Of a DNA stretch of 64,000 bases, positions 31,182-55,132 are shown one piece after another. The translations under genes were made by a program, and so were the position numbers. The stretch's first letter is position 1; every line of letters begins with the position of its first letter. The notes under the pieces were generated by a model, which was given only the letters and a program-made list of their open reading frames with translations, searched no databases and was not told the DNA's origin. The stretch comes from an uncultured Acidimicrobiales bacterium. GTDB lineage: Bacteria > Actinomycetota > Acidimicrobiia > Acidimicrobiales > VFJN01. The stretch is from NCBI GenBank assembly GCA_963735375.1, contig CAVTKS010000007.1:333585-397584 (forward strand), in the 5' to 3' direction.

Positions 31182-31358
31182 CGCCTCAGGACGGTGCTCC
31201 GCGCCGGAGCGCCGGCCGCAGGCGCATCGCCATCCGCTCCGGCAACGCGGCATCGGTGACGTCAGGGTGAACTCTGCCCGACCAGCCGGTGTTGGGCGGG
31301 TGGCGGGGCGCCGAAACCTCACGCGGCGCGGCCTCGTGGGCTTGATCCGTCGGCACGG

Positions 31359-33431
31359 GTGACGAAGCCTCTGCGCACACAGACCGTCGCCCCCAAGGAC
31401 GGTCTGTGGCTGGGAGCCATGCGACGCGCCGTCTCGATCCGAACCAAGCTCGTCTCTCTGGTCGCCGCCCCTCTGGTCGCGCTCGCGCTCCTCGCGGGCC
31501 TGGGGGTGCGCTGGTCGTCCGACGCCGCCGCCCGCAGCAGCGCCGCGGCCCGCACGACCGAGGTCGCGTTGGCGTCGACCACAGCCGCGCTCGACGCATC
31601 CCGCGAGCGTGGGCTCGCGATGGCCGTGCTGGCCGACAACGCCGACCGCGAGGGCGCCGAGGCCGGCGACGGCACCGAGCTGCGGTTCCAGCGCGGCCAG
31701 ACCGACGTGGCGTTGGACCGGCTCGACGCCACGATCGCCGACTCGGGCGACGGGTTCGGTGTGGCGCTGGTCGTCGACGACGTCCGCGTCCGCCTCGGCG
31801 ATCTCCGCGAGCAGGTCGACGGCGCCCGGACCACCGTCGACGCCGTCCTGGCCGAGTACACGACGGTGGTCGACCGGTTGCTGCAATCCGTCGACGCCGA
31901 CATCGCCGCCATCGGGGACGCCGACCTGCTGGCGACGGCGCAGTCGTACGGCGCGCTGGTCCGAGCGACCGAAGCCGTCGCTCTGCAACAGACGCTGCTC
32001 ATGTCGGCGTTCGCCCGCGGCCGGCTCGACCCGGCGGTGCACGAGCGGATGGTCGGCACGGTGGCGACGGAGCAGCTGTGGCGCCGCCAGTTCGAGCATG
32101 GCGCGACCGCGACCCAGGTCGAGGACTACACGGCGGCGCTCCAGTCCCCGTCCGTCGACGCCGCCGACCGGGTGCGCGGCGACGCTCTCGCGTTGGGGCC
32201 GAACGGCGTGGTGCCCGACGACGGTGACCTGTGGTTCAGCGCGATGACCCGCAAGGTCGACCTGCTCGACACCGCCGCCGACGACATCGCGTCGGACCTC
32301 GCTGCCCAGGCCGACGCCCACCGACGCGCCAGCGACCGCCAACGCAACCTCCTCCTCGGCCTGGGCGTCACCGCCCTCGTGTTGATCGGGGGGCTGCTGG
32401 CGCTGCTGCACCGCATCGTCATCCGGCCCATCCGCAGGCTGACGGCCGCGGCGCACGACGTCGCCACCGACGCGCTCCCGCGGGCGGTCGCCGTGGCGCA
32501 CAGCCACGGGCCCGAGGCGGCCTACAACGTCGCCAAGCCGCTCGTGGCACCGGCCGACGACGAGCTGGGCGAGCTCACCGAAGCGTTCAACGCCGTGCAG
32601 CGCACCGCCGTCGCGCTCGCCGCCGAGCAGGCATCGCTCCGCCGCAACGTCAGCGATGTGTTCGTCAACCTCGGCCGGCGCACGCAGAACCTGATCACGC
32701 GGCAGCTCGACCACATCGACCACCTCGAGGCCCGGACCGACGACCCGGACGGACTGGCCGACCTCTTCCTGCTCGACCACCTCGCAACCCGCATGCGCCG
32801 CAACGCCGAGAACATGCTGGTCCTCGCCGGTGCCGAGTCGCCCCGGCCCTGGGCGCGCCCGGTGTCGATCGTCAACGTCGTCCGGGCCGCGCTCGCCGAG
32901 TCGACCGACTACTCGCGGGTCGACATCGAACGCCTCGCGCCCGTCGGCGTGCTCGGCGCCGCGGTCAGCGACGTGTCGCACCTGCTCGCCGAGCTGGTCG
33001 ACAACGCCCTCGCCTTCTCGCCCCCGACCGAGCGGGTGTCGATCAGCGGGCGGTGGACGGTCGACGGGCGCTACGGGCTCGCAATCGCCGACGCCGGGCT
33101 CGGCATGCCGCCGGACCGGCTCGCCGCCGCCAACGCCCGCATCAGCGATCCTCCCGTCGACGACTTCGCCGTGTCCCGGTTCCTGGGCCTGTACGTCGTG
33201 GGACGCCTCGCCGCCCGCCACGGCGCGGCCGTGACCCTCGCCCACTCGCCGCTCGGCGGCATCACCGCTCACGTTCTGCTGCCGGCACGCCTCATCGTCG
33301 CCGCCACCGGGTCCGGCCCGGCGGGGACTGCCCTCTCCCCGACGACGACGTCCGGCCCGCCCGCACCACCCTCACCGTCGCCCGCCTACGTCCCGGCACC
33401 TACTCCCGCCGGCGGCGCACCCGATGGCTGA
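31359..33431 (+). CDS. Conservon CvnA-like sensor: NIT (nitrate/nitrite-sensing-type) + HAMP + HATPase_c
   Basis: N-terminal TM (LVSLVAAPLVALALLAGLGV), a long helical sensor region, a second TM plus HAMP (IRPIRRLTAAAHDV), then the ATPase (HLLAELVDNALAFSPP...IADAGLGMPPDRL...GLYVVGRLAARHG). An alternative ATG at 31419 is possible. Confidence 0.75.
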   Translation: MTKPLRTQTVAPKDGLWLGAMRRAVSIRTKLVSLVAAPLVALALLAGLGVRWSSDAAARSSAAARTTEVALASTTAALDASRERGLAMAVLADNADREGAEAGDGTELRFQRGQTDVALDRLDATIADSGDGFGVALVVDDVRVRLGDLREQVDGARTTVDAVLAEYTTVVDRLLQSVDADIAAIGDADLLATAQSYGALVRATEAVALQQTLLMSAFARGRLDPAVHERMVGTVATEQLWRRQFEHGATATQVEDYTAALQSPSVDAADRVRGDALALGPNGVVPDDGDLWFSAMTRKVDLLDTAADDIASDLAAQADAHRRASDRQRNLLLGLGVTALVLIGGLLALLHRIVIRPIRRLTAAAHDVATDALPRAVAVAHSHGPEAAYNVAKPLVAPADDELGELTEAFNAVQRTAVALAAEQASLRRNVSDVFVNLGRRTQNLITRQLDHIDHLEARTDDPDGLADLFLLDHLATRMRRNAENMLVLAGAESPRPWARPVSIVNVVRAALAESTDYSRVDIERLAPVGVLGAAVSDVSHLLAELVDNALAFSPPTERVSISGRWTVDGRYGLAIADAGLGMPPDRLAAANARISDPPVDDFAVSRFLGLYVVGRLAARHGAAVTLAHSPLGGITAHVLLPARLIVAATGSGPAGTALSPTTTSGPPAPPSPSPAYVPAPTPAGGAPDG

Positions 33432-33801: not shown

Positions 33802-33922
33802 CGGACGCGGGAAGCACGGCACGACCCCTCCGTCGACACCTGGACCGTGACGACCCTCGCCCTGGATCGGGGCGGTACAGTCCGCCGCGCCCGTCGAACG
33901 ACGCGGCGGAACGGGGGGCGAC

Positions 33923-36586
33923 GTGGGGACGGTCCGCAAGACGGCGGCAGTGCTGACGGCGGTCATCGGCGCGCTCGCTGCGGTGCACCCCGCGGGCGCT
34001 CAGCAGCCCGACCCTGAACCACCGTCCATCACGGTGGCCATCTCGCCCGCGGAGGGCCTCGTCGACGACCAGGAGGTGACCGTCACCGGAACGTCGACGG
34101 GCACCGAGTGGGTGCAGATCTCGCAGTGCGCCGCGGACGTGGCGACCACGTCGGTCTGCGACTCCGACTACGGCTCGTGGGTCGAGACGCAACCGGACGG
34201 CTCGTACAGCACCCGGCTCACCGTGAAGATGGTGATGCGCACGGAGGCGGGTCGGGACGTCGACTGCCGGCAGGGTGACGGGTGCGTGGTCGTCGCCATC
34301 GGCGAGGAGTCCGACCTGCGGGACGCGGCCACCGCTCCCCTGGTCTTCGCCCCCGGCGCCGAGCCGCGTCCTGCGCCGACGATGGCCGTCGACCCCGCGG
34401 TCGGCCTCGTCGACGGCCAGCGGCTCACCGTCACCGGCAGCGGCTTCTCCCCCGGCTACCTCGCGCTGTTCCAGTGCGCCCCGGGCCCGGACCTGGCGTG
34501 CCGGTTCCTCGACGATGCCCAGGCCGCGGCGGACGGCACGCTGGCGACCACCGCGGTCGTCTCGGCGCGGGTGGTGTCCTGGTCCAGCGAGCCGGTCGAC
34601 TGCCGCTCGGCGCTACCACGCTGCGAGCTGGTCGCCACGCCGGCCGGCCTGCAGTCGTCGCGCGCCGCCCGTGCCGAGCTGGCGTTCGATCCAGACGGCC
34701 CGCTGCCGCCCCCGCCCGCCATCACCGTCGGTCCGACGGCCGACATCGTCGATCCGGCGCCGGTCACCGTGGCGGGGACGGACTTCACCCGCGACGGCTC
34801 CGTGAGCGTCGCCCTGTGCCGCGATGACGGCCCCGACAGCTGGGCGTGCGAGGCCGAGACCACGATCTTCACGTCGGCGGACTCGACCGGGGCGTTCACC
34901 GCCTCCCTCGACATCGCCTCCACGTTCGGTTCCGGAGACCTCACCAACGAGCTGATCGACTGCCGCCAGCCGCCCGGCTGCGCTGTCGTCGCCCGCGACG
35001 ACGAGACGGGCGTGTCAGCGAGGGTGCCTGTGACGTTCGGCGCACTCGCCCCCGGCCGGGGCCGCTACCTCGACCCCGTGTTCGCGGCGGTCGACATCAC
35101 CCACGACGTGGTCTACCGGCAGACCACCCGGCACGACGGCACCGCTGTCGACCTGCGGATGGACATCTTTCAGCCCGCAGGCGACACGGCGACGGAGCGC
35201 CCGGTCGTGATGGGAATGCACGGCGGCTTCTTCATCTTCGGCGACGAGAACCAGTTGGCGGCGTCATCGTTCGAGTACGCCAGGCGGGGCTACGTGGCGG
35301 TGTCAATCTCCTACCGCTTGCGGCCCGACATGAGCGTCTCGGACGTCGCCGGCCAGGTCGCGGCGTCGTACGACGCCTACGACGACGCTCTGGCCGCGGT
35401 GCAGTGGTTGCGCGACAACGCCGCGGAGTACCGCATCGACCCGGATGCGATCGCTGCGGGCGGCTACTCGGCGGGCGGCGCCCTCGCCTTCCACTTCGCC
35501 TACATGCCCGGCCAGTACGGCCCCGACACCCCGGCGGTCGCGGCCGCGCTGCCCATGGCCGGGGCCAACATCGGCGTGCCCGAGCCGGGCGAACCGCCGG
35601 TGCTCGCGCAGCACGGCGTCGACGACCCGCTGCTCTCCATCGCCAACCCCCGCGACGCGTGTGCCCGGGCGACCCAGGTCGGCAACGTGTGCGAGCTGGT
35701 GGAGTACCCCGACGAGGGGCACATCATCTCGCAACGCCGCGACCTGCTCTCCCGTGCCGTGGACTTCCTGGCCGAGCACATGCTGACCCCGCGCGGGTAC
35801 TTCGACGCCCCGACCGCCCATGGCGGCCCCGACGTGACGGTCACCGAGGGCGCGTCGGTCGCGCTCGGGGGCAGCGCTTCGCCCGACGCCGGCGACGACG
35901 CGCTCACCTACTCCTGGCAGCCGGCCGACCGCCTCGACGACCCCACCTCGCCGACGCCGACGTACACGGCGGTGGACGACGGGGCCGAGGTGCTGACCGT
36001 CACGGTCGCCGGCGCCCACGGCACCTCCGCCTCGGACCAGGTGATGGTGACCACGACCAACGCCGCGCCCGTCGTCGCGGCGGTCACGCCGGCGAACGCG
36101 CCAGGGTCGTCCGACCTCGCCCTCGCTGTCGATGTGACCGATCCCGGCGCCGCCGACACGCACACGGTGGCGGTCGACTGGGGCGACGGCACGGTCGACG
36201 CCGTGGCCCCCGACCCGGCGCACACCTACGCCGAGCCGGGGCGCTACGACGTGGCGGTGACGGTCACCGACGACGATGGCGGCACCGCGACGTGGGCCCG
36301 ACGCGTGGTGGTCGGCTGCACCAGGGTCGGCACGGAGGGCGACGACCTCCTGATCGGGCTCTGGCGCGACGACGTCATCTGCGGCCTCGGCGGCGACGAC
36401 CTCGTCATCGACCTCGCGGGCGATGACCAGGTCTACGGCGGTGCAGGCGACGACTGGATCCACGGCGGCCGCGGCGACGACCTGCTGGTCGGCGGCGAAG
36501 GGCGTGACCGGGCATGGGGTGGCGCCGGCCGCGACACCTGCACCGCGGAGACCACCCACTCCTGCTCGCCGGAGCGCCCACGCTGA
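33923..36586 (+). CDS. Secreted multidomain protein: 3 neocarzinostatin-like Ig repeats + HSL-type esterase + PKD + Ca-binding (RTX-like) repeats
   Basis: Signal peptide TAAVLTAVIGALAAVHPAGAQ. Three ~105-aa Cys-paired repeats (ITVAISPAEGLVDDQEVTVTG.., MAVDPAVGLVDGQRLTVTG.., ITVGPTADIVDPAPVTVAG..). Esterase motifs MHGGFF, GGYSAGG and EGH. PKD-like VDWGDGT...YAEPGRYDVAVTVTDDDG. GDD-rich nonapeptide-like repeats at the C-terminus. Confidence 0.8.
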   Translation: MGTVRKTAAVLTAVIGALAAVHPAGAQQPDPEPPSITVAISPAEGLVDDQEVTVTGTSTGTEWVQISQCAADVATTSVCDSDYGSWVETQPDGSYSTRLTVKMVMRTEAGRDVDCRQGDGCVVVAIGEESDLRDAATAPLVFAPGAEPRPAPTMAVDPAVGLVDGQRLTVTGSGFSPGYLALFQCAPGPDLACRFLDDAQAAADGTLATTAVVSARVVSWSSEPVDCRSALPRCELVATPAGLQSSRAARAELAFDPDGPLPPPPAITVGPTADIVDPAPVTVAGTDFTRDGSVSVALCRDDGPDSWACEAETTIFTSADSTGAFTASLDIASTFGSGDLTNELIDCRQPPGCAVVARDDETGVSARVPVTFGALAPGRGRYLDPVFAAVDITHDVVYRQTTRHDGTAVDLRMDIFQPAGDTATERPVVMGMHGGFFIFGDENQLAASSFEYARRGYVAVSISYRLRPDMSVSDVAGQVAASYDAYDDALAAVQWLRDNAAEYRIDPDAIAAGGYSAGGALAFHFAYMPGQYGPDTPAVAAALPMAGANIGVPEPGEPPVLAQHGVDDPLLSIANPRDACARATQVGNVCELVEYPDEGHIISQRRDLLSRAVDFLAEHMLTPRGYFDAPTAHGGPDVTVTEGASVALGGSASPDAGDDALTYSWQPADRLDDPTSPTPTYTAVDDGAEVLTVTVAGAHGTSASDQVMVTTTNAAPVVAAVTPANAPGSSDLALAVDVTDPGAADTHTVAVDWGDGTVDAVAPDPAHTYAEPGRYDVAVTVTDDDGGTATWARRVVVGCTRVGTEGDDLLIGLWRDDVICGLGGDDLVIDLAGDDQVYGGAGDDWIHGGRGDDLLVGGEGRDRAWGGAGRDTCTAETTHSCSPERPR

Positions 36587-36610: not shown

Positions 36611-39600
36611 TCAGGCGCCGGCGCCGACCGTCTCGCTGACCACCCGCGACGAGCCACCCGGCTGCATCGTGACCCCGTAGAGGCAGTCGGCGGCCTCCAT
36701 CGTGCGCTTCTGGTGGCTGACGATGATGAGCTGCGCTTCCTGGCGGAACTCGGCCACCAGGTCGAGGAACCGGTGCAGGTTCACGTCGTCGAGCGCGGCC
36801 TCGACCTCGTCCATCACGTAGAACGGCGACGGCCGGCTGCGGAACACCGAGAACAGGTAGGCCAGCGCCGTCAACGACCGCTCGCCGCCCGACAGCAGCG
36901 ACAGCTTCTTGACGTTCTTGCCTGACGGCTTGGCCTCGATCTCGATGCCCGTGTTGAGCAGGTCGTCGGGGTCGGTCAGGCGCAGGCGCCCGACACCGCC
37001 AGGGAACAACGTGGCGAACAGCTGCTCGAAGTTCTCGCTCACGTCCGCGTAGGCGGCCGCGAACACCCGCACGATCTCCTCGTCGATGGCCCGAATGACC
37101 TTGTTGAGCTCGCGCCGGCTGCCCTTGACGTCGTCGAGCTGCTCGGTCAGGAAGGTGTGGCGCTCGGACAGCGCCTCGAACTCCTCGAGCGCCAGCGGGT
37201 TGACGGGCCCCATCACCCTCAGCTCGCGCTCGAGCTCCCGTACCCGCACGGTGGGTGTCATGCCGTCCGCCAACTCGGGCTGGGGCGCGGCGACGGCGGC
37301 CTCGGGCTCGACGTCGAGCTGGGTGCGGCACAGCTCGATCGCCTGCTCGAGCCGGAGGCGGACCTCGGCCTCGTCCAGCTCGATGCGCTGGAGTCGCTCG
37401 CGCTTCTCGGTCAGCGACTTCTCGGCGGCGGCCCGCTCGCGCCGCTGGGCGTCGAGCTGCGCCGACAGCGTGCGCTGGGCGGCCGTCTCGCGCTGGCGGC
37501 GTTCCTGCATCTCGGCCAGGTGTTCCTCGACGAGCGCCAACCTGTCGCCGACGAAGGCCGAGAGCCGGTCGAGCGCCCGCTCGGCGGTGTCGAGCTCACC
37601 CCGGCGCTCCTCGGCCTGGCGACGCGCCTCGACCGAACCGGCCAGCCGCTCCTCCACCTCCGCGAGCCGGCGCTGCAGGAAGGTGTTGCGGTCGGACAGC
37701 GCGGTGCGCCGCTTGTCGAGGTCGGTGCGCCGGCCGGCGACCTGGTTGGCCTGGTCGTCGAGCCGACGCCGGGCCTCGGCCATCGCCTGGGCCCGCTGGC
37801 GCAGCGCCGTCTCCTCGGCCTCGAGTTGAGGCAGCTCGGCATCCAGCTCGGCGGCACGGTCGCGGTCGCGGGCCAGCCGCTCGGCCGTGTCACGCTGCTG
37901 CTCGGCGAGCAGGTCGAGCTCGCCGAGGGTGTCGTCGCGGTCGCGTGCGGCGCGCTCGCGCGCCTGGGTGGCCGCGGCAAGCGTGCGCTGGCGCTGGTCG
38001 AGTGCCTTGGCCGCCGCGGCCTCGGCAGAGCGCGCCTGGTCGAGCGCGGCCTTGGCCTCACGATGGTCGGCAAGCGCGGTGTCGGCGGCCGCGGACGCCG
38101 CCCCCGACCGCCCGCGCGCTTCGTCGAGTGCGGCGCCCGTCGCACCGGTGGTGGTGGTCGAGACCCGCCAGCCGCCGGTGCCGAAGCGGCCGCCGCTGCG
38201 GGTGACGACGACGGCGTCCGGGTGCGCGAGCGCGGTGTCGACGGCCTCGGTCCAGCCGCCCTCGACGGCGACGGCCGCGCCGAGCAACCCGTCGAGCAGG
38301 GCGGCGACCTCGGGACGGCGAGGGCGGACGTGGTGCAGCACGGGTTCGCCGACCGGCGGTGGGGTGCGGCGGGTGGGGGCGACGCCCATGGCGAGCACCG
38401 CGCCCGGCACGTCACCGTTGGCGAGCACCTGCAGCGCTCGACGGCCCGAGGCCACCGAGTCGACGACCACGGCGGCCAGCGCCTCGCCGCACGCGGCCTC
38501 GGCGGCGGCCTCCCACCCCGGGTCGATGTCGACCAGGTCGAGCAGGGTCCCGATCACGCCCTCGACCGCGGAGAGCCGCTCGGCCCCGGCCCGCGAGCGC
38601 GCCTCGTCAAGCGCCATGGCCAGCGCCTCGGTGCGGGCCGTCCACGTGTGGCGCTCGGCCTGGGCGGCGTCCCGTCGCTGCTCGGCAGCCTGGGCCGCTT
38701 CCTCGGACACCGCACGCCGCTGCCGGGTCGACTCGACCTCGGCCGCGAGCGCGGCTTCGTCCGCCTGCCCCTCGATCTGCCCGGTGGCCTCCGCCGCCTC
38801 GGTGTCGAGGCGCTCGAGCTTCGCCCGCAGGTTGGCGACACGGTTCTCGGCCCGCTGGGCGTCCGCGTCGGCGCGGTCAAGCACCTTGCGCAGCGTGCCC
38901 AGCTCGCCCCGCACCTCGGACGCCCGGCCCGACGGCGACGGCACGCCCTCGCCCCACTCGGCGTCGAAGGCCGCCCGGGCCTCGGCGAGCACCGACTCGG
39001 CGGCGGTCAGCGCCTCGGCATCGGGGATCAGCCCCTCCGACTCACCGGCCAGCCCGGCGATGTCGGCGGTCAGGCGGGCGGCGTCGGACTCGAGGCTGGC
39101 GATGACCCCTTGGTCGACGAACGCCGCCCGCTCCCGGTCGACGCCGCGGCGGCGCTCGGTCAGCAGGGCGAGCTGGCCCCGGGCCTTCTCGCGAAGGCCC
39201 TGCACCTGCACCAGCGCATCGCCGACCTCGCTGCCCCCCAGCGTCGCCAGCTCGGCCTCCGCGGCCATCACCGCGATGTCGAGGTCGGTCAGCCGGCGCT
39301 TGAGCAGCGTCTCCTCGTTGCGCAGCTCGGCCTTCGCCGCGGTGCTGTCGCCCAGGCGGCGCTTGAGCGTCGTCAGCTCGCGTCCGGCGACGAACACGTG
39401 GAGCGCCTGCAGCTCGGTGACGAGGTCGCCGTGGCGGCGGGCGGCGTCGGCCTGTCGCTCGAGCGGGCGGAGCTGGCGTCGCACCTCGCGCAGCAGGTCG
39501 CCCAGGCGGGTGAGGTTGCCCTCGGTCGCCGTCAGCCGACGCTCGGACCGCTCCTTGCGCTTGCGGTGCTTGAGCACGCCGGCGGCTTCTTCGATGATGA

Positions 39601-40076
39601 GCCGTCGGTCCTCGGGGCGGGCGTTGAGCACCGCGTCGATCTGGCCCTGCCCCACGATGACGTGCTGCTGGCGACCGACGCCCGTGTCGCTGAACAGCTC
39701 CTGCACGTCGAGCAGGCGGCAGGGCACGTTGTTGATGGCGTACTCGCTCTCACCCGACCGCCACAGCGTGCGGGTGACGGTGACCTCGCTGAACTCGATG
39801 GGCAGCAGGCCGGCGCCGTTGTCGATGGTCAGGCTCACCTCTGCCGCGACCGAGCGCCTGGCGCTTGGTCGTACCGGCGAAGATGACGTCCTCCATCTTC
39901 TGGCTGCGCACTGCCGAGGGTGCCTGGGCGCCGAGCACCCAGCCGATGGCGTCGACCACGTTGGACTTGCCCGAGCCGTTGGGGCCCACCACGACGGTGA
40001 CGCCCGGCTGCATCTCGAGGACGGTCGACTCCGCGAAGGACTTGAACCCCTTGAGGGTCAGCGCCTTGAGGAACAT
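36611..40076 (-). CDS. smc: Chromosome partition protein Smc (frame broken by an extra nucleotide at about 39845 as assembled)
   Basis: The N-terminal head [44 protein letters not shown]...KRQALGR is in ORF 39750..40076. The +1 frame continues [18 protein letters not shown]..., then coiled coils, a hinge and the C-terminal head ([29 protein letters not shown]). Confidence 0.9.
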
Positions 40077-42082: not shown

Positions 42083-43102
42083 TCACGCCGGCGCGACGGC
42101 CGCACGCAGGCGCTCGACCAGGTCGGCCTCGATCATCTCCTTGGCCACCCGGGCGGCGTTGACGATCGCCGTCGCCGAGGACGAGCCGTGGCTGATGATG
42201 CACACCCCGTCGACGCCCAGCAGCATGGCGCCGCCGGTCGAGTCGGGGTCGAGCGTGCTGTACAGGGGCAGCAGGGCCTGGAACGCCTGGTCGGCGACAT
42301 CGGTCGCACCCAGGGCATCGAGCACGCTGCGCACCAGGGCCTTCATGCCGCCCTCGAGGGTCTTCAGCGCCACGTTGCCGGTGAAGCCGTCGGTCACGAC
42401 CACATCGACCTCGTCGGTCATGATGTCGCGACCCTCGACGTTGCCGACGAACCGTGCGCCGGAACGCTCCAGCGCCGCCGGCTCGGCCAGCAGCGCGTGC
42501 GTCTCCTTGACCAGCGGGTTGCCCTTGGTCGACTCCTCGCCGATGGAGAGGAGGCCGACCCGGGGCTCGACGAGGCCGTAGCGCTCGCGGGCGAACACGG
42601 CGCCCATCTGGGCGAACTGCACGAGCCATGCGGGCTGGCACTCGGCATTGGCGCCGGCGTCGAGCAGCACCGTGGGCGTCGAGCCCGGCACCGGGATCGG
42701 CGTGGCGATGGCCGGGCGGGACACGCCCTTGACGCGGCCCATGCGCAGCAGCGCCGATGCCATGGTCGCCCCGGTGTTGCCGGCCGACACCATGGCCGAC
42801 GCCCTGCCGTCGCGCACGGCTTCGGCGGCGCGCACCAGGGACGAGTCCTTCATGGTGCGGACGCTGGACCCGGGGTCGGCGTCCATGCCGATGACCTGCG
42901 AGGCCTCGATCAGCTCGAGGTCGCCGCGCAGGGGATCGATCTCGTCGGGTCGGCCGACCAGCACGACGGGCACACCCAGCTCGGACGCGGCGCGCTGGGC
43001 GCCGTCGACGATGGCGGCGGGCGCGTTGTCACCACCCATGGCGTCGATGGCGATGGGCAGCGTCACGGCGGCAGGCGCGTTCACGATGTCTGCGTGGCTC
43101 AC
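42083..43102 (-). CDS. plsX: Phosphate acyltransferase PlsX
   Basis: Protein reads LPIAIDAMGGDNAPAAIVDGA...GNVEGRDI...DVVVTDGFTGNVALKTLEG. Confidence 0.92.
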   Translation of the reverse strand: MSHADIVNAPAAVTLPIAIDAMGGDNAPAAIVDGAQRAASELGVPVVLVGRPDEIDPLRGDLELIEASQVIGMDADPGSSVRTMKDSSLVRAAEAVRDGRASAMVSAGNTGATMASALLRMGRVKGVSRPAIATPIPVPGSTPTVLLDAGANAECQPAWLVQFAQMGAVFARERYGLVEPRVGLLSIGEESTKGNPLVKETHALLAEPAALERSGARFVGNVEGRDIMTDEVDVVVTDGFTGNVALKTLEGGMKALVRSVLDALGATDVADQAFQALLPLYSTLDPDSTGGAMLLGVDGVCIISHGSSSATAIVNAARVAKEMIEADLVERLRAAVAPA

Positions 43103-43125
43103 CGGAGTGACCGCAGGCTCAGTGC

Positions 43126-43305
43126 TCAGTCGACCTCAATGGCCACGCGGCCGCCGTACCAGCCGCAGTTGCCGCACACCACGTGGGGCAGCTTGGCCGA
43201 GCTGCAGCGCGGGCACACGCTGCGAGCAGGGCGATCGAGGCGCCACGCGCTCGCCTTGCGGCTGCGGCTCTTGGCCTTGGAGGTCTTCTTCTTGGGGACG
43301 GCCAT
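43126..43305 (-). CDS. rpmF: 50S ribosomal protein L32
   Basis: Protein reads MAVPKKKTSKAKSRSRKASAWRLDRPARSVCPRCSSAKLPHVVCGNCGWYGGR. The ATG at 43305 was verified. Confidence 0.92.
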   Translation of the reverse strand: MAVPKKKTSKAKSRSRKASAWRLDRPARSVCPRCSSAKLPHVVCGNCGWYGGRVAIEVD

Positions 43306-46780: not shown

Positions 46781-46957
46781 GTGGAGGTCGACCGGGTCAT
46801 CACGTGCATCGACTGCGGGGGACGAGCGCACTTGATCTCGTACCCGCCGTCGGAGCGCGACTGGGAGCCCGGTGACCTGGTCGTCTACCGGTGCGAAGAC
46901 TGCCTCGACCGCTGGGACCTGCTGGTTCCCGACGACGACGGTCCCGACGAACCCTGA
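46781..46957 (+). CDS. Small zinc-ribbon protein (58 aa)
   Basis: Protein reads VEVDRVITCIDCGGRAHLISYPPSERDWEPGDLVVYRCEDCLDRWDLLVPDDDGPDEP, with two CxxC pairs. GGAG lies just upstream of the GTG. The 5' part of ORF 46607..46957 is the repeat element, not coding sequence. Confidence 0.5.
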   Translation: MEVDRVITCIDCGGRAHLISYPPSERDWEPGDLVVYRCEDCLDRWDLLVPDDDGPDEP

Positions 46958-47055
46958 CGACCGTCCTCCATCCCTGGGGTCAACCCCCATGTCCCCCGAG
47001 CCGCGCGCGTGATCAGGTACTCGGGACCGCCAGTGACGACAACGGAGACAGCACG

Positions 47056-47466
47056 ATGCACACCACCCGATCCACCCACCTGCTGCGCCGCATGGTCGGC
47101 CTTGCCGCCGTTCCGGCCCTGCTGCTCACCGCCGCCGCGTGCGGCGACGACGACGACAGCGCCGGCGGCGGGGGCGGCGACGGCGCCGAGTTCTGCGAGC
47201 AGGCACGGACGCTCGACGAGCGCTTCGCGGACGTCTCCGATCCCACCGGCGACGAGTTCGGTGCAGCGATCCAGGCCTTCACCGAGCTCGATCCCCCGGC
47301 TGCGATCGCCGAAGACTGGGAGACGATGGTCGCCTCGCTCCAGGCCTTCGAGGACATCGACTTCAGCGACCCCGAGGCACTCGACGAGTCCAACTTCGCC
47401 GATGCCGAGGCGGCCTCCGACCGGGTCACCACGTACATGGAAGAAGAGTGCGGCATCTCCGGCTGA
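47056..47466 (+). CDS. Acidic lipoprotein (hypothetical)
   Basis: Protein reads MHTTRSTHLLRRMVGLAAVPALLLTAAACGDDDD, with a lipobox-like TAAAC. GGAGA lies 7 nt upstream of the ATG. Confidence 0.65.
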   Translation: MHTTRSTHLLRRMVGLAAVPALLLTAAACGDDDDSAGGGGGDGAEFCEQARTLDERFADVSDPTGDEFGAAIQAFTELDPPAAIAEDWETMVASLQAFEDIDFSDPEALDESNFADAEAASDRVTTYMEEECGISG

Positions 47467-47565: not shown

Positions 47566-50500
47566 CTAGCCCTTGAGCAGGAAGTCCTGGTCGTCCTCGT
47601 CGAGGAAGAGGGCCACCTCGGCCAGCAGGTCGGGGTGGCGCTCGAGGCCTCCGTCGGCGTCGTCGACGATGGCGAACGCCGCAGCGCGGGCCCGATCGAC
47701 CCACTCGCGGTCGCGACGCAGCGACGCCAGCTTGAGGTCGCTGCGGCCCTTCTGCCGCTCGCCCATGATCGTGCCCTCGCCGCGCAGGTCGAGGTCGACC
47801 TCCGCGAGCGCGAACCCGTCCGTCGTCTTCACGAGGGCGCCCAAGCGGGCCTCGGCCTCGTCGGTCTCGGACGTGCTGACCAGGTAGCACCAGGACTGCT
47901 CGCTCCCCCGCCCCACCCGGCCCCGCAGCTGGTGGAGCTGCGCTATTCCGAAGCGGTCGGCGTCGAGGATGACCATGACCGTGGCGTTGGGGACGTCGAC
48001 GCCCACCTCGATGACGGTAGTGGCCACCAGCACGTCGAGGCGCCCCTCGCGGAACTGGTGCATGGTCGCCTCCTTGTCGGCCGACCCCAGCCGCCCGTGG
48101 AGCAGCCCCAGGCGCAGGCCGTCCAGCTCGTCGGCTGCGAGCTGGGCGAACGTGTCCTCGGCCGAGCGCACCTCGAGCTTGTCGGATTCCTCGATGAGCG
48201 GCGTCACCACGTAGGCCTGGCGCCCCGCCTCCACCTCCCGCCGCACCGACGCCCACACGTCGGCCTCGTCGGCCTCGGTCTTGGCCCACGACGTCACGAT
48301 GGGCTGGCGGCCGGCCGGGAGGGAGGCGATGACCGTCACGTCGAGGTCGCCGTAGACCGTCATCGCCGCCGTGCGCGGGATGGGGGTGGCGGTCATGACC
48401 AGCACGTCGGGCACCGGTCCGCCGCCGGCCTTGTCGCGTAGCGCGGCGCGCTGCTCGACACCGAACCGGTGCTGCTCGTCGATGACGACCGCGCCGAGCG
48501 ACCGGAAGTCGACGCCCTCCTGGATGAGGGCGTGGGTGCCGATGGCGATGTCGACCTCGCCGGCAGCCAGGGCGGCGAGGATGCGGCGACGGTCGGCGGC
48601 CCCGACCTTGTTGGTCAGCAGCTCGACGCGGAGGGGCCGGTCGGCGAACAACGAGCCGCCGTCGTCGGGCACGTCGACGCCGTCGAGCAGCGCCCGGATG
48701 CCGGTGGCGTGCTGCTCGGCCAGCACCTCCGTGGGCGCCATGAACGCCCCCTGGTGACCGCCCTGCACGGCGGCGAGCAGGGTCCAGACGGCGACGACGG
48801 TGTTGTGCGTGGGCACAAACCCGTCAGTCACGTACATCTGGCTCGGATGAGCGACCGAGATGCACCGCACGGGCTCACGCCCGACGTGTGTGATCTGTCG
48901 GATGGCACGCGCGGGATTCGCGTACTTCGTCTTGGGACGCAGGAGCCGGGCCTTGCGCTCGAGCCGGAAAGGTGCGAACTCTGCGGGGAGCCGAACACCC
49001 ACCTGGTAATACTGCCCTCCCGCCTTGAGCCGAGGCCTCAGCGTTGCGATGCCTCCGAGCGATGCCACGAGCCAGCGAACGTCGAGCGCCAGGTCGAGCG
49101 AGGCTGATGTGAACGAGACATTCGCGCCGTGTCGACTCAGGGTGCCGTCTGTATCGAGAAGTCCTTGCAGGAGCGCGTGCCGGTCCTTGACCGGTGCCGA
49201 CAGGTAGCTCTCGGGAACGAACTTGTCATGCGACCCTCGTCCTCGAAGTCCCAGGTCCTTCAAGGCCTTGGCAACGGGGTGCGGACGGGCTGGGCTGTGT
49301 CGGAACGAGCAGCGGATCGCGTGGTCGAACCGTCGACTTGTCGACTGCTTGAGGAAGCATCCCTCCGGGAGGAGGCCGTCGACCGCCTCCACCATCTCCG
49401 GATCGCCTGATGAGAATACGATGTTCGCGCGGAAGGTGCCGTCGCCGAGCAGTGCACCCAAGAGGTAGGGATCGAGGGGACGATGGCCGTGGCCGTCGAA
49501 ATCTGCCGCGGTGGCGCGCTCGATGTGCCAACGAGACGCACCGTTCTTCTCGAGCAGGTGCTCTCGCAGGTACCTGGTCGTCACCGTCTTCGGCGCTCGA
49601 CTACGAGAACGCCCGACCGACGTGTTCACGACCCAGAGGTGCTCGTCATCGCAATCGACGGTTGAACCGTCCGACAAGAGCACTCTCCACACCTCGCGGA
49701 CGCCTTGCGGGAAGACACCCGTCACATTGGTGATCTCACCATTCGGCGTGATGACATCGTCGCCCATTACCAGATCCCCCATTCGTCGGAAGCCATCGGG
49801 GGTCAGCACCAGTGAGCGAAGCGGTTGCGCCTTGCCCGCCCCCACATCCCCCTGCAAGAGGCGGTGCATGGGGTGAGGCGCAGTCAGGTCGTGGCCGATC
49901 TCGGCGATGGCGGCCTGCTGGTCGGCGGTCAGGTCGAACGGCAGCCGTCCGACGAACGCGTCGAGCAGCGGACCGTCGGTCGCCTGCGCGATGCCACGGG
50001 TCGTGCGCTCGATGTGGCGCTTGCGCTGCACCAGCGCGAGCTGCACCCGCAGCAGCTCGTCGAGGACGAGGCGTTTGCGGGCGACCTCCTTGTGGGCCAT
50101 CGACTCGGGCGCGTGGATGCCGGCGAACGCCTCCGGCCGGGTCACCAGGTCGTACCGGTCGAGCACCCAGTCGGGCACCGGGTCGGCCAGACCGCGGACC
50201 TGCGAGCGGCGCAGGGCCTCGGCCACCCAGTCGCCGATCTCCCAGGTCGACAGACCGGCCTTGTCGGACTGCGGGTAGATCGGCACGATGCGGCCGGTGC
50301 GGTTGCCGATCAGGTCGACGACCGGGTTGGTCATCTGCCGGCGCCCGTTGAACATCTCGAGCTTGCCGAACAGCGCCACCGTCATGCCCGGGGTGAGCTG
50401 GCGCTCGCGCCAGGCCTGGTTGAAGAACGTGACCCGCAGCTGCCCGCTGTCGTCGTTCACGTCGACGGTGACCAGCGTCTTGGGCGGCCGCCCGCGGGTG

Positions 50501-50739
50501 CGGCGCGACGACGCCCGCTGCACGGTGACGATGACCAGCGCCTCCTCGCCCACGACCAGGTCGCGGATGCGGGCCTCGTTGGTGCGGTCGACGTAGCGGC
50601 GCGGGTAGTAGGTGAGCAGGTCGAGCAGGTTCTCGACGCCCACCTGGGCCAGCGCGTCAGCCTTGCGGTCGCCAACGCCCTTGAGGCGGGTGACCGTCCA
50701 CGAGGCCAGCTCGCCGAGGGTGATGGGCCCGTCGCTCAT
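47566..50739 (-). CDS. recG: ATP-dependent DNA helicase RecG, interrupted by an in-frame intein
   Basis: It has a wedge/OB N-terminus, helicase motifs (GDVGAGK|..|TVVA, VIDEQHRFGV, MTATPIPRT, LHGRLGSADKE, ATTVIEVGVDVPNA, HQLRGRVGRG). It is 1056 aa, of which 343 are intein. Confidence 0.93.
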   Translation of the reverse strand: MSDGPITLGELASWTVTRLKGVGDRKADALAQVGVENLLDLLTYYPRRYVDRTNEARIRDLVVGEEALVIVTVQRASSRRTRGRPPKTLVTVDVNDDSGQLRVTFFNQAWRERQLTPGMTVALFGKLEMFNGRRQMTNPVVDLIGNRTGRIVPIYPQSDKAGLSTWEIGDWVAEALRRSQVRGLADPVPDWVLDRYDLVTRPEAFAGIHAPESMAHKEVARKRLVLDELLRVQLALVQRKRHIERTTRGIAQATDGPLLDAFVGRLPFDLTADQQAAIAEIGHDLTAPHPMHRLLQGDVGAGKAQPLRSLVLTPDGFRRMGDLVMGDDVITPNGEITNVTGVFPQGVREVWRVLLSDGSTVDCDDEHLWVVNTSVGRSRSRAPKTVTTRYLREHLLEKNGASRWHIERATAADFDGHGHRPLDPYLLGALLGDGTFRANIVFSSGDPEMVEAVDGLLPEGCFLKQSTSRRFDHAIRCSFRHSPARPHPVAKALKDLGLRGRGSHDKFVPESYLSAPVKDRHALLQGLLDTDGTLSRHGANVSFTSASLDLALDVRWLVASLGGIATLRPRLKAGGQYYQVGVRLPAEFAPFRLERKARLLRPKTKYANPARAIRQITHVGREPVRCISVAHPSQMYVTDGFVPTHNTVVAVWTLLAAVQGGHQGAFMAPTEVLAEQHATGIRALLDGVDVPDDGGSLFADRPLRVELLTNKVGAADRRRILAALAAGEVDIAIGTHALIQEGVDFRSLGAVVIDEQHRFGVEQRAALRDKAGGGPVPDVLVMTATPIPRTAAMTVYGDLDVTVIASLPAGRQPIVTSWAKTEADEADVWASVRREVEAGRQAYVVTPLIEESDKLEVRSAEDTFAQLAADELDGLRLGLLHGRLGSADKEATMHQFREGRLDVLVATTVIEVGVDVPNATVMVILDADRFGIAQLHQLRGRVGRGSEQSWCYLVSTSETDEAEARLGALVKTTDGFALAEVDLDLRGEGTIMGERQKGRSDLKLASLRRDREWVDRARAAAFAIVDDADGGLERHPDLLAEVALFLDEDDQDFLLKG
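48802..49830 (-). mobile_element. Intein (343 aa) with LAGLIDADG homing-endonuclease domain in the RecG P-loop
   Basis: The junctions GDVGAGK/AQPLRSLVLTPDG and VTDGFVPTHN/TVVAVW were verified at nucleotide level (GCG at 49830-49828, AAC at 48804-48802). The LAGLIDADG motifs are LLGALLGDGTF and LLQGLLDTDGTL. Confidence 0.85.
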
Positions 50740-50751
50740 GCGAACGGCCGG

Positions 50752-52419
50752 CTATTCGACGCCGAACAGGTAGGGGTAGAGCGGCTGGCCGCCGTGGTGC
50801 ACCTCGGGCGACACGCCCGGCCGGTGCTCGCCCAGCCACTCGGTGATGGCGCGGGTGTCGGCCGCGGTGGCGCCCTCGCCCTCGATGACCGTGACGATCT
50901 CGTGGTCGTCGGTGACCAGCAGGTCGAGCAGCCTCGTCGCAGCCGCGGCGATCGACTGCTCGACCGCCCGGATGCCGTCGCGGGCGATGCCCAGGTAGTC
51001 GCCCTCGGCGATGGGGCCGGCGTCGCTGGTGGAGTCGCGCACCGCCTGGGTGACTTCGCCGGCCAGCACGTTGGCCGACAGCGAGGCCATCTCCTTGGCG
51101 TTCTCGTCGGCGGGCGCCTCGGGGTCGTAGCCCATCAGCGCGGCGAAGCCCTCGGCGATGCCACGTGTGGCGACCACCCGCACGGTGCGGGACGTGTGGG
51201 CGTCGACCTGCTCGGCCACGGGGATGATGTTCTTGTTGTTGGGCAGGATGACGACCTGGTCGGCGGGCACGGCCTCGACCGCGGCGAGCAGGTCGGCGGT
51301 GGAGGGGTTCATCGACTGCCCGCCGGCCACGATGCCCTGCACGCCCAGGCTGTAGAAGATGCGCTTGATGCCGTCGCCGGCGGCCACGGCCACCACCGCG
51401 GTGGTGACGGGCTCGGTGGCGTGGGGTGGCAGCTCGACGATGTCGGTGCCGGTGGCCTCGCGGACCCAGCGCTCCTCCTCGACCTCCTCCATCAGGTCGG
51501 TCACCCGGATCTTGCGGGGGCGCCCGGCATCGACCGCGGCCTCGATGGCGGCGCCGATGTCGTCGGTGTGGATGTGGCAGTTCCAGATGCCGTCGCCGCC
51601 CACCACGACGATCGAGTCGCCGATGCCGGCCCACACGTCCTTGAACGCGGGGATGGCCTCGTCGGGCGCCTCGAGGAAGTACATGACCTCGTAGCGCAGG
51701 TCGGACACGCTGTCGTGGGCCTCGTCGCCGGTGTGCTGCACCAGGTGGGCGTCGGGGCGGACCGCGCCCTCCCCCACCCTCGGCTCCGGCACCGGACGGC
51801 CGTCGACGACGTGCAGCAGCACGTCGAGCAGCAAGAGGAAGCCGGTGCCGCCGGCGTCGACCACCCCGGCCTCGGCCAGCACGGGCAGCAGCTCGGGCGT
51901 CTTCTCGAGGGCCACCGCGCCGGCGTCGCGTGCCGCCTCGACGACCACGACCAGCGCCGCGTCCGGCGTGGCGGCGACCGCGGCCTCCGCCGCCTCGGCC
52001 GCCTCGCGGACGACGGTCAGGATCGTGCCCTCGACCGGGCGCATGACGGCCTGGTAGGCGGCATCGGCCGCGGCCCGCAACGCCCGGGCGAACGTCGGTC
52101 CGTCGGCCGACCCGGCCTCGTCGATGACCGACACCATGCCCCGCATGATCTGCGACAGGATGACGCCCGAGTTGCCACGCGCGCCCATGAGCGACCCGTG
52201 GCTGATGGCCTTGCACACCTCGGGCAGGCTGTCGCCGGCGGCGTCGAGGTCGTCGCACACCGACACCAGCGTGAGCGACATGTTGGTGCCGGTGTCGCCG
52301 TCGGGCACGGGATACACGTTCAGGCGGTTGATCGGCTCACGGTGCGCGGCCAACGCCTCCTTGTAGGCATGCACGGTCGCCCGCAGATCGGCGGCCCCCA
52401 GGTGGTCGAGCACTGTCAC
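50752..52419 (-). CDS. DAK2 domain fusion protein YloV
   Basis: Protein reads INRLNVYPVPDGDTGTNMSLT... with a C-terminal DegV-like half. Its position upstream of recG is as in many Gram-positives. The start is uncertain (GTG 52419; the ORF extends to 52494). Confidence 0.85.
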   Translation of the reverse strand: MTVLDHLGAADLRATVHAYKEALAAHREPINRLNVYPVPDGDTGTNMSLTLVSVCDDLDAAGDSLPEVCKAISHGSLMGARGNSGVILSQIMRGMVSVIDEAGSADGPTFARALRAAADAAYQAVMRPVEGTILTVVREAAEAAEAAVAATPDAALVVVVEAARDAGAVALEKTPELLPVLAEAGVVDAGGTGFLLLLDVLLHVVDGRPVPEPRVGEGAVRPDAHLVQHTGDEAHDSVSDLRYEVMYFLEAPDEAIPAFKDVWAGIGDSIVVVGGDGIWNCHIHTDDIGAAIEAAVDAGRPRKIRVTDLMEEVEEERWVREATGTDIVELPPHATEPVTTAVVAVAAGDGIKRIFYSLGVQGIVAGGQSMNPSTADLLAAVEAVPADQVVILPNNKNIIPVAEQVDAHTSRTVRVVATRGIAEGFAALMGYDPEAPADENAKEMASLSANVLAGEVTQAVRDSTSDAGPIAEGDYLGIARDGIRAVEQSIAAAATRLLDLLVTDDHEIVTVIEGEGATAADTRAITEWLGEHRPGVSPEVHHGGQPLYPYLFGVE

Positions 52420-52592
52420 GGAGATGGATGCTAGGTGACGCGCCCCGCGCGTCCGTTCCCGGCGGCGGCCGCGTACGGACGCGGCGGCGTCCACTCCGGT
52501 CGATGGGCAGCCGGCACCTCGATGCCGCGAGCGGGACGATCACGCACGACCGACGCCGGCCTCCGTCACCGCCGGACGCCGGCCCGGGCAAG

Positions 52593-53025: not shown

Positions 53026-53289
53026 GTGCAAGGCGTGATCAAGGCGTACGACCCAGGGTCCAAGGACGGGATCGTCGTGCGTGACACGGACCTGTCCGAG
53101 GTCGACCTCGCGCCCGATGCACTCGAGGGCTCGGTGTTCCGTCTGCTCCGCCAGGGGCAGCGCGTGATCTTCGACCTCGACGGCGAGGGTCGTGCCACGC
53201 GGCTGCGGTTGGGGTCGGAGGTCGACATGGGGACGCCGGGGCTCGACCCCGAACGCTTCCCGCCAGGGGACGACTCGACCTCCGCGTGA
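53026..53289 (+). CDS. Hypothetical small protein (possible OB/cold-shock-like fold)
   Basis: 87 aa: [57 protein letters not shown]3-rich. I did not recognise a family. Confidence 0.5.
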
Positions 53290-53323
53290 CCGGCACACCC
53301 AGGACATCGCCGACCGGAGGATC

Positions 53324-55132
53324 ATGGCTGCAACCACCACCAACCAGAAGCTCAAGGACTGGGTCGACCACTGGTCGGGTGTGCTCCAGCCAGATGCGGT
53401 CGAGTGGTGCGACGGCTCCGACGAGGAGTGGGAGCGTCTCACACAGCTGCTGATCGACGGCGACACCTTCGAGCGACTGGCCGAGGACAAGCGTCCGAAC
53501 AGCTTCCTCGCCCTGTCCGACCCCGGCGACGTCGCCCGCGTCGAGGACCGCACGTTCATCTGCTCCGAGCGCGAGCACGACGCGGGCCCCACCAACAACT
53601 GGCGGGCGCCGGCCGAGATGAAGGCCGAGCTCACCGGGCTGTTCACCGGCGCCATGCGCGGCCGCACGCTCTACGTCGTGCCGTTCTCGATGGGGCCGTT
53701 GGGGTCGCTCATCGCGCACATCGGTGTCCAGCTCACCGACTCGGCCTACGTGGCCGCCAACATGCGGATCATGACCCGCATGGGCCAGGGCCCCCTCGAC
53801 GTGCTGGGTGCGGACGGCGAGTTCGTCCCGTGCCTGCACTCGGTCGGCTACCCGCTGGTCGACGCCGGCGGCAACGCACGTGACGACGTCGCCTGGCCGT
53901 GCGACGCCGACAACAAGTACATCGTCCACTTCCCCGAGACCCGGGAGATCTGGTCGTACGGGTCGGGCTACGGCGGCAACGCCCTGCTGGGCAAGAAGTG
54001 CTTCGCGCTGCGCATCGCCTCCACGATGGCCCGCGCCGACGGGTGGATGGCCGAGCACATGCTCATCCTCGGCGTCACGCCGCCGGGCGGCGAGAAGCGC
54101 TACGTGGCCGCGGCGTTCCCGTCGGCCTGCGGCAAGACCAACATGGCCATGATGATCCCCACCCTGCCCGGCTGGAAGGTCGAGACCGTCGGCGACGACA
54201 TCGCCTGGATGAAGTTCGGCGACGACGGCCGCCTCTACGCCATCAACCCCGAGGCCGGGTTCTTCGGCGTCGCGCCCGGCACGGGAGACGACACCAACCC
54301 CAACGCCGTCGCCACGTTCTACGGCAACTCGATCTTCACCAACGTCGCCAGGACCGACGACGGTGACATCTGGTGGGAGGGTCTGTCCGACCCGCCGGCC
54401 CACGCCATCGACTGGCACGGCAACGACTGGACCCCCGAGAGCGACGCCCCGGCGGCGCACCCGAACGCCCGGTTCACCACGCCGGCGTCGCAGTGCCCGT
54501 CGATCGCGCCCGAGTGGGAGGACCCCAAGGGTGTCCCGATCTCGGCGATCCTGTTCGGCGGCCGCCGGGCCACCAACGTGCCGCTCGTGACCGAGTCGTT
54601 CGACTGGGACCACGGGGTGTTCCTCGGCTCGACCATGAGCTCCGAGACCACCGCCGCCCAGGCCGGCGCGGTGGGCAAGCTGCGGTTCGACCCGTTCGCG
54701 ATGCTGCCGTTCTGTGGCTACAACATGGGCGACTACTTCGCTCACTGGCTCGAGATCGGCCAGGCCACCAGCACGGACAAGCTGCCCAAGCTGTTCCTGG
54801 TCAACTGGTTCCGCCGGGGTGAGGACGGCTCGTTCCTGTGGCCGGGCTTCGGCGACAACAGCCGGGTGTTGAAGTGGGTCCTCGAGCGGGTCAACGGCGA
54901 GGGCGAGGCCGTCGACACGCCCATCGGCCGTGTTCCCGCGGCGGGCGCGCTCGACACCAGCGGCCTCGAGATCGACGACGCGACGTTGGCCCAGCTGGTC
55001 GCGGTCGATGCGGAGTCGTGGCGGCAGGAGCTGCCGCAGCTCGACGAGCACTACAAGGGCATCGGCGACAGCGTGCCTCCCGGCCTGCGCGAGCAGCTGC
55101 TCGCGCTCGAGAAGCGGCTCGCCGGCGGCTGA
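53324..55132 (+). CDS. pckG: Phosphoenolpyruvate carboxykinase (GTP)
   Basis: Protein reads [14 protein letters not shown]...[21 protein letters not shown]...[16 protein letters not shown]...[32 protein letters not shown] sequence is upstream. Confidence 0.93.

Follow-up and report, generated by a model that had tools for sequence, protein, structure and literature searches.

Class 3 inteins were defined by Tori et al. (2010, PMC2807308) through the triplet WCT, which consists of a Trp at block B:12, a Cys at block F:4 and a Thr at block G:5, and in the splicing pathway given there the block F Cys attacks first, a second, thioester-branched intermediate forms, and this is then passed to Thr+1. 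Further marks of the class are a residue 1 other than Cys, Ser or Thr, an absolute need for the block F Cys, and lability of the block F branched intermediate to thiols. Hosts of this class include DnaB, RecG, SNF2 and terminase proteins, in which the inteins are located mostly at the P-loop (PMC2807308). Kelley et al. (PMC6195587) gave the structure of the DnaBi1 intein and the same residue roles, and in the main text of Novikova et al. (2016, PMC4760082) RecG appears among the 15 most frequent bacterial intein hosts, with 12 inteins, all from Actinobacteria. Here we analyzed a stretch of 64,000 nucleotides (the window) from an uncultured Acidimicrobiales bacterium (GCA_963735375.1, contig CAVTKS010000007.1, positions 333,585 to 397,584), for which an original prediction had placed an intein with a LAGLIDADG homing endonuclease inside the recG gene. 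On the sequence evidence, the inserted element in recG is identified as such an intein and was located and interpreted correctly, and we consider it highly probable that it is a 343-residue bifunctional class 3 intein in the Walker A motif of a chromosomal recG, which is spliced out of the product and is capable of homing.

The gene has the following parts, where GC3 denotes the GC content at third codon positions:

47566..50739, minus strand: recG precursor open reading frame (ORF) from the ORF list, 1057 amino acids (aa) plus stop, ATG start, comprising N-extein, intein and C-extein
49831..50739, minus strand: N-extein, RecG residues 1-303, whose C-terminal end is GDVGAGK, the first part of Walker A; GC3 0.964
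48802..49830, minus strand: intein, in-frame insert of 343 codons, precursor residues 304-646
47566..48801, minus strand: C-extein, residues 304-714 of spliced RecG, and stop codon; GC3 0.964

The insertion point lies between Lys303 and the Walker A Thr (GDVGAGK/T), and the precursor reads ...HPMHRLLQGDVGAGK / AQPLRSLVLTPDG ... DGFVPTHN / TVVAVWTLLAAV across the two junctions, or in short LLQGDVGAGK / AQPLRSLV...VPTHN / TVVAVWTLL. When the insert, whose 343 codons contain neither a frameshift nor a stop, was excised in silico, a 714-aa RecG with an intact GDVGAGKTVVA was obtained, and this spliced protein aligned to the T. maritima RecG structure 1GM5 with E=2e-137 and without a gap at the junction. 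The product of the gene scored above the cut-offs of two RecG equivalog models, NCBIfam NF008168 (776 bits, cut-off 718, with the match broken into two stretches) and TIGR00643 (681 bits, cut-off 659), and carries the Pfam domains RecG_wedge, DEAD, Helicase_C and RecG_dom3_C. Computed masses are 115.8 kDa for the precursor, 77.9 kDa for spliced RecG and 37.9 kDa for the intein. The original prediction had put a 343-codon insert at exactly these coordinates and residues inside Walker A, and had stated that deletion of residues 304-646 recreates GDVGAGKTVVA and that products of ~78 and ~38 kDa would result; all of this agrees with the present values, and its sole numerical slip was an ORF length of 1056 aa instead of 1057.

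Alignment to intein-free RecG orthologues and a survey of relatives for empty and occupied alleles had been named as ways to check the insert, and both kinds of allele were indeed found. We took 79 RecG loci from reference genomes, one genome per species, of which 78 belong to Acidimicrobiia (55-90% identity) and one to Embleya. All 78 Acidimicrobiia loci are uninterrupted at the site and read GDVG[AS]GK/T[VLI]V, including one that is 90% identical to the window RecG, and on the basis of these relatives the host was assigned to Acidimicrobiales. The sole insert-bearing locus of the 79 is that of the actinomycete Embleya sp. NBC_00896 (L001), where a 56% identical intein, which also starts AQPL, occupies the identical position. 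Moreover, the best 120 RecG matches contained four occupied metagenomic alleles, which are 87% (L080), 84% (L081), 64% (L082) and 62% (L083) identical to the window, and the neighbourhood rpmB-fakA/DAK2-recG is common to the window and these four. The closest record to the window precursor in the protein collection searched is at most 87% identical, and the exact precursor sequence is absent from the assembly index.

We then compared the insert with other inteins. A database search with the insert only returned 169 relatives at E<=1e-3, and the best of these were RecG fragments from Actinomadura and from metagenome-assembled genomes of Actinomycetota (47-62% identity). Its splicing elements are located as follows:

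49792..49830, minus strand: splicing block A (AQPLRSLVLTPDG), which lacks an N-terminal nucleophile because its residue 1 is Ala, a residue shared by all 57 aligned members
49633..49650, minus strand: splicing block B (DDEHLW) with Asp61, His64 and the class 3 Trp66, aligned to D62/H65/W67 of 6BS8; H64 and W66 are invariant
48802..48873, minus strand: splicing blocks F and G (PVRCISVAHPSQMYVTDGFVPTHN), aligned to PVRCVEV...VPTHN of 6BS8
48862-48864, minus strand: Cys323, the predicted initiating nucleophile, which matches C118 of 6BS8
48802-48810, minus strand: Thr341-His342-Asn343, invariant in the 57-sequence alignment
48799..48801, minus strand: Thr+1, the first C-extein residue and the Walker A Thr (GK/T), predicted acceptor nucleophile in splicing; nearly every family member has Thr or Ser at +1

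In the 57-sequence family alignment A1, H64, W66, C323, T341, H342 and N343 are invariant, and D61/H64/W66/C323/T341/H342/N343 pair one-to-one with D62/H65/W67/C118/T137/H138/N139 of M. smegmatis DnaBi1 (6BS8). Nearly all homologues that span the key positions, among the best 120 of the 169, carry A1/H/W/D/D/C/T/H/N with Thr or Ser at +1. A hidden Markov model (HMM) of the family covers the recG intein from end to end (456 bits), and the solved structures matched in sequence were the class 3 DnaB inteins 6BS8 (M. smegmatis) and 6RIX/6RIY (M. chimaera) and the gp41-1 intein, and in these alignments both the splicing region at the N-terminus and PVRC...VPTHN at the C-terminus were covered. NCBIfam models that contain inteins (DnaB PRK07773, GyrA_w_intein and RecA PRK09519) matched the insert region only. 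With Ala1, the WCT triplet Trp66/Cys323/Thr341, the His-Asn end and Thr+1, the recG intein is assigned to class 3. Because residue 1 is Ala instead of Cys or Ser, the canonical first step, an N-S or N-O acyl shift at this residue, would be impossible, and splicing is predicted to begin at the internal Cys323. Hence the class 3 assignment implies a splicing chemistry that differs from the canonical Cys1/Ser1 pathway implied earlier: the block A that had been claimed is present, but it starts with Ala and not with the usual Cys or Ser nucleophile, whereas the terminal HN followed by Thr+1 was read correctly.

The remaining middle part of the insert is occupied by the endonuclease:

48931..49530, minus strand: LAGLIDADG homing-endonuclease domain, approximately intein residues 101-300 (limits approximate), placed by Pfam LAGLIDADG_3 and by fold
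49438-49470, minus strand: LAGLIDADG motif 1, PYLLGALLGDG, with putative catalytic Asp130; G125 and G131 invariant, D130 at least 90% conserved
49144-49173, minus strand: LAGLIDADG motif 2, LLQGLLDTDG, with putative catalytic Asp228; G223, D226 and G229 invariant, D228 at least 90% conserved

Both of the LAGLIDADG motifs that had been claimed are thus present, Pfam LAGLIDADG_3 (PF14528) scored 36.5 bits on the insert against a threshold of 22.5, and the Gly, Pro and Tyr residues around both motifs are invariant in the 57-sequence alignment. An AlphaFold2 model of the intein built on this alignment had a mean predicted local distance difference test (pLDDT) of 96.0 and a predicted template modelling score (pTM) of 0.93. 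In a Foldseek search with this model the best E-value was that of the Thermococcus litoralis VMA (TliVMA) intein (2.8e-19, template modelling (TM) score 0.62-0.65), PI-SceI gave TM 0.73-0.78 in most entries at E ~5e-16, and PI-PfuI came next; mini-inteins matched the splicing domain at target TM 0.73-0.81 (class 3 DnaB ~0.8), and both I-DmoI and the endonuclease domain of PI-SceI matched the endonuclease domain. The model therefore presents the recG intein as a predicted HINT fold interrupted by a double-motif LAGLIDADG endonuclease.

Taken together, the restored host motif, the orthologues without insert, and the homology in both sequence and predicted fold indicate that the insert is an intein. 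An accessory domain that is specific to this lineage, does not splice and is kept in the mature RecG would also appear as an in-frame insertion, and nothing further speaks for it. Such a domain would split the Gly-Lys-Thr of Walker A, which would be incompatible with ATP binding; it is absent from 78 of 78 relatives of the class, one of them 90% identical; the insert has end-to-end homology to inteins in PhoH, DnaB, RecA, SNF2, terminase and CHAP proteins; and its predicted fold is HINT plus LAGLIDADG. Because the insertion lies inside GK/T, is missing from orthologues and has intein homologues in unrelated hosts, we exclude an accessory domain with a probability of error that we judge to be negligible.

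We also considered whether the element is a decaying or splicing-dead remnant, in which case recG would in effect be inactivated and the endonuclease would no longer work. A dead remnant would be in line with the fact that many bacteria can do without RecG, with the absence of the intein from most relatives, and with the poor scores that the intein obtains from general Hint profiles (see below). However, every family-invariant splicing residue and both LAGLIDADG acidic residues are intact, the frame is open across 343 codons, and the model reaches a pLDDT of 96. Moreover, the ratio of non-synonymous to synonymous substitution rates (dN/dS) against L080 and L081 is 0.10-0.14 when computed over the intein, 0.11-0.13 when only its endonuclease domain is taken, and ~0.2 in both exteins, above the intein values; hence host gene and intein are both under purifying selection, and in the intein, with values of ~0.1 over all its sub-domains, this selection acts throughout the element. 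A dead remnant is thus very improbable in our estimate. Low dN/dS together with the interleaving of occupied and empty alleles, described next, suggests that the recG intein is a mobile and functional element.

In a neighbour-joining tree built from exteins only, the three close occupied alleles are scattered through a clade of 75 otherwise empty sequences, and the nearest relatives of the occupied alleles by extein are all empty (window-P0124, 94.1%; P0121-P0161, 96.6%; P0122-P0159, 99.2%). The occupied L081 (3001-6183; from ERZ25039541) and the empty L085 (3001-5154; from ERZ25039469) have exteins that are 99.1% identical in DNA and neighbouring genes that are 99.5-99.7% identical, and the empty site in L085 and L086 reads ...CAGGGCGATGTGGGCGCGGGCAAG/ACGGTCGTCGCCGTCTGG.... 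Of the 19 extein differences between L081 and L085, six are crowded into the 13 nt immediately upstream of the insertion site (binomial p ~1e-9), and between the occupied L080 and the empty L087, whose exteins are 96.4% identical in DNA, six differences lie within 32 nt downstream of the junction (p ~1e-3). At first sight such clustering resembles a co-conversion tract. Identities of intein and exteins also diverge in different ways from pair to pair: window and L080 share 86.9% in the intein and 87.8% in the exteins, window and L081 75.5% and 88.0%, and window and Embleya 56.6% and 45.4%. These discordant divergences argue for some horizontal movement.

We also searched for other copies of the element. 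When the family HMM was run against six-frame ORFs of the 64-kb window, only the recG copy was found and no second intein. A single-sequence scan found no close phage-borne copy that could be a vector, and a profile scan found at least 590 full-length family members on IMG/VR viral contigs (including L088-L167), at 31-42% identity. Judged by these sequence matches, phages harbour a large pool of this class 3 intein family, and none of the members found is similar enough to have given rise directly to the recG copy.

Several observations weigh against an active, homing intein. Part of the junction patch of L081 (AGC GGG -> GSGK) is also present in the near-identical empty alleles L168 and L169. 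We had taken the L081/L085 junction cluster as a candidate proof of gain by homing, and rejected it for this reason: because empty alleles carry part of the patch, the cluster shows only that recombination was focused on the site and not whether its direction was gain or loss. In a crude co-conversion test over the 8 codons next to the junction, occupied alleles were not richer in A/T-ending codons than the 78 empty ones (Mann-Whitney p=0.20). The near-equal identity of intein and exteins between the window and L080 fits vertical descent in that pair too. Splicing and DNA cleavage themselves are predicted from the sequence. Finally, the profile search by which the prediction was to be checked had a positive side with LAGLIDADG_3 and a negative one with the general Hint models, since Pfam Hint_2 gave E=0.2 (12.5 bits, threshold 28.4) and TIGR01443 gave 12.9 bits against a cut-off of 15.6. 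Taken to the letter, the refuting condition that no Hint profile hit is obtained nearly applied and would have been ambiguous. We take these weak scores as low sensitivity of the models to a divergent class, because both the predicted fold and the class 3 DnaB inteins of solved structure do match.

Two of these observations would suit a history in which the intein was acquired once, long ago, and was then precisely lost many times without ongoing homing, the endonuclease being conserved for another reason. The roughly equal intein and extein identities hold for window-L080 and likewise for window-L082/L083, and the GSGK/AGC-GGG patch that occupied L081 shares with empty L168 and L169 could be a scar of loss. 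Such a history, however, would need very many independent precise deletions to leave three occupied alleles scattered in a clade of 75 leaves; it does not agree with a lower intein than extein identity for window-L081 when window-L080 is equal, which indicates discordant histories; and in the comparison across classes, with Embleya, identity is higher in the intein than in the exteins. As an account of the whole we think it rather unlikely, and old gain with many losses is possible for part of the occupancy pattern. Continued homing of the recG intein would explain both its patchy presence among near-identical strains and the purifying selection on its endonuclease domain.

The base composition of the element was consistent with what had been claimed by eye, namely that the insert is less GC-rich than the flanking recG codons: computed GC and GC3 are 0.638 and 0.746 for the intein and 0.723 and 0.964 for both exteins. 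Compared with 3640 windows of 343 codons drawn from other likely genes in the 64-kb window (mean GC3 0.939, standard deviation 0.024), the intein lies below the minimum of 0.845, at z ~-8. In the six RecG intein alleles (window, L080-L083 and the Embleya L001) the intein GC3 is 0.73-0.82 and the extein GC3 0.94-0.97. The low GC had been said to fit horizontal acquisition, and the element does look foreign, but the deficit is shared by every occupied allele, including the 87% identical one, and gives no sign of recent arrival. Because it is common to all occupied alleles, it is a property of the element lineage and not a date of arrival in this genome, that is, a stable GC3 deficit of the element lineage, as often in mobile DNA. 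We also observed that the RecG inteins keep their low GC3 and do not drift to host composition even where intein and extein divergence are equal; conceivable causes are a reservoir of lower GC content, transfer at high frequency, or selection that acts only weakly on the codons of the intein.

By analogy with the inteins of mycobacteriophage Bethlehem DnaB and M. smegmatis DnaBi1, we propose the following mechanism. The 115.8 kDa precursor, in which the P-loop is split, would be unable to bind ATP properly. Cys323 would attack the Lys303-Ala304 peptide bond to give a thioester-branched intermediate, from which the N-extein would be handed to the side chain of Thr+1 (precursor Thr647, the Walker Thr). 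Cyclisation of Asn343 (precursor Asn646) would then release the 37.9 kDa intein, and an O-to-N acyl shift would yield the 77.9 kDa RecG with GDVGAGKT intact. Once released, the intein is predicted to act on recG alleles without an insert and to cleave them where the conserved Walker A motif is encoded, and repair templated on an occupied allele would copy the intein in, which is homing.

A different role is compatible with this mechanism, in which the intein is kept mainly as a post-translational switch (conditional protein splicing), so that oxidation or metal at Cys323, possibly paired with Cys60, blocks RecG activity for as long as stress lasts, in the way reported for DnaBi1. The recG intein shares its class and the type of P-loop site with DnaBi1, whose Cys118 forms a regulatory disulfide with Cys48 (PMC6195587), a further cysteine, Cys60, lies in its splicing domain four residues to the N-terminal side of His64, and selective retention of P-loop inteins has been argued by Novikova et al. 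Yet Cys60 is not conserved in RecG inteins (Ala in L082 and L083, Gly in L001), a rare and patchy intein among close relatives fits a selfish element better, and the conserved endonuclease domain would be needless for a pure regulator. We therefore regard retention as a switch as unlikely, and equally doubtful is the combined form of this idea, in which a redox- or metal-sensitive class 3 switch withholds RecG fork rescue under stress while the intein is still homing in wild populations of Acidimicrobiales, in which occupied and empty strains of 99% identity live side by side. If true, the latter would make selfish spread and regulation at the level of the host measurable together in one natural system.

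Beyond recG, the surrounding genes are SMC (36614-40057), plsX (42086-43135), fakA/DAK2 (50752-52494) and phosphoenolpyruvate carboxykinase (53168-55129), and this neighbourhood is conserved in related Acidimicrobiales contigs. On the plus strand, 46891-47466 is a small ORF downstream of recG without a Pfam match, in which an internal start gives a lipoprotein-like signal (...LLLTAAAC, then an Asp-rich stretch) and which overlaps an antisense ORF that is probably spurious. Also on the plus strand, 33851-36583 encodes a 911-aa protein of unusual architecture, with two domains of the neocarzinostatin family (enediyne-binding apoprotein), an esterase/alpha-beta hydrolase, PKD and RTX calcium-binding repeats, and 31260-33428 encodes a sensor histidine kinase that combines HAMP and HATPase_c with a nitrate/nitrite-sensing (NIT) domain at its N-terminus. 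Scans of the whole 64 kb for tRNA genes and for Rfam families at gathering score found neither.

For annotation, the 1057-aa recG product is to be read as an intein-containing precursor, whose likely products are a mature 714-aa helicase and a 38 kDa endonuclease, and a class 3 label on the element avoids a search for a Cys1 mechanism. The strain pairs L081/L085 and L080/L087, with 96-99% extein identity, could serve as material for studies of the homing cycle among uncultured bacteria. Because it is full-length, retains an intact endonuclease and has a very confident model, this class 3 intein is also a possible scaffold for protein engineering. The phrase 'RecG intein' was not found in the literature searched, and RecG inteins appear not to have been studied by experiment.

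Among known systems, the Bethlehem DnaB prototype and DnaBi1 (6BS8) share with the window intein the non-nucleophilic residue 1, the WCT triplet, the DxxH block B, the His-Asn end, Thr or Ser at +1 and insertion after the P-loop Lys (GK/T or GK/S). The host differs, being RecG, a superfamily 2 helicase, instead of DnaB; moreover, DnaBi1 is a mini-intein without endonuclease, whereas the window intein keeps a full LAGLIDADG domain, and similarity to 6BS8 is confined to the splicing blocks (E ~4e-9). PI-SceI of yeast VMA1 and the TliVMA intein, which are the structural archetypes of bifunctional inteins, have the same layout of a HINT domain interrupted by a double-LAGLIDADG endonuclease, but they are class 1 inteins (Cys1) with 16-17% sequence identity to the window intein, are larger and reside in a V-ATPase and not in a helicase, and PI-SceI has an extra DNA-recognition region. 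Related inteins in PhoH (two sites), DnaB, RecA, SNF2-type helicases, CHAP-domain proteins, terminase and portal are 31-44% identical over the full 343 residues and have the same invariant residues at other insertion sites and in other hosts. RecG alleles match one another best and so appear, by sequence comparison, to form a separate allele group.

The published actinobacterial RecG inteins, as they are described in the main text of Novikova et al., have the same host protein, phylum and general P-loop location as the window intein, and partial Actinomadura RecG records are 49-52% identical to it. Unlike that published set, so far as the main text gives it, the window intein resides in the class Acidimicrobiia, in which all 78 reference genomes retrieved are empty, and it extends the actinobacterial P-loop inteins of RecG by a host from this class. 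The window case follows the published pattern with respect to host, site, class and phylum, since RecG of Actinobacteria was already a described location of class 3 inteins in the P-loop, and current understanding is unchanged by it; what may be modestly new is a copy in Acidimicrobiia that is at most 87% identical to any record, together with a presence/absence polymorphism at strain level in metagenomes.

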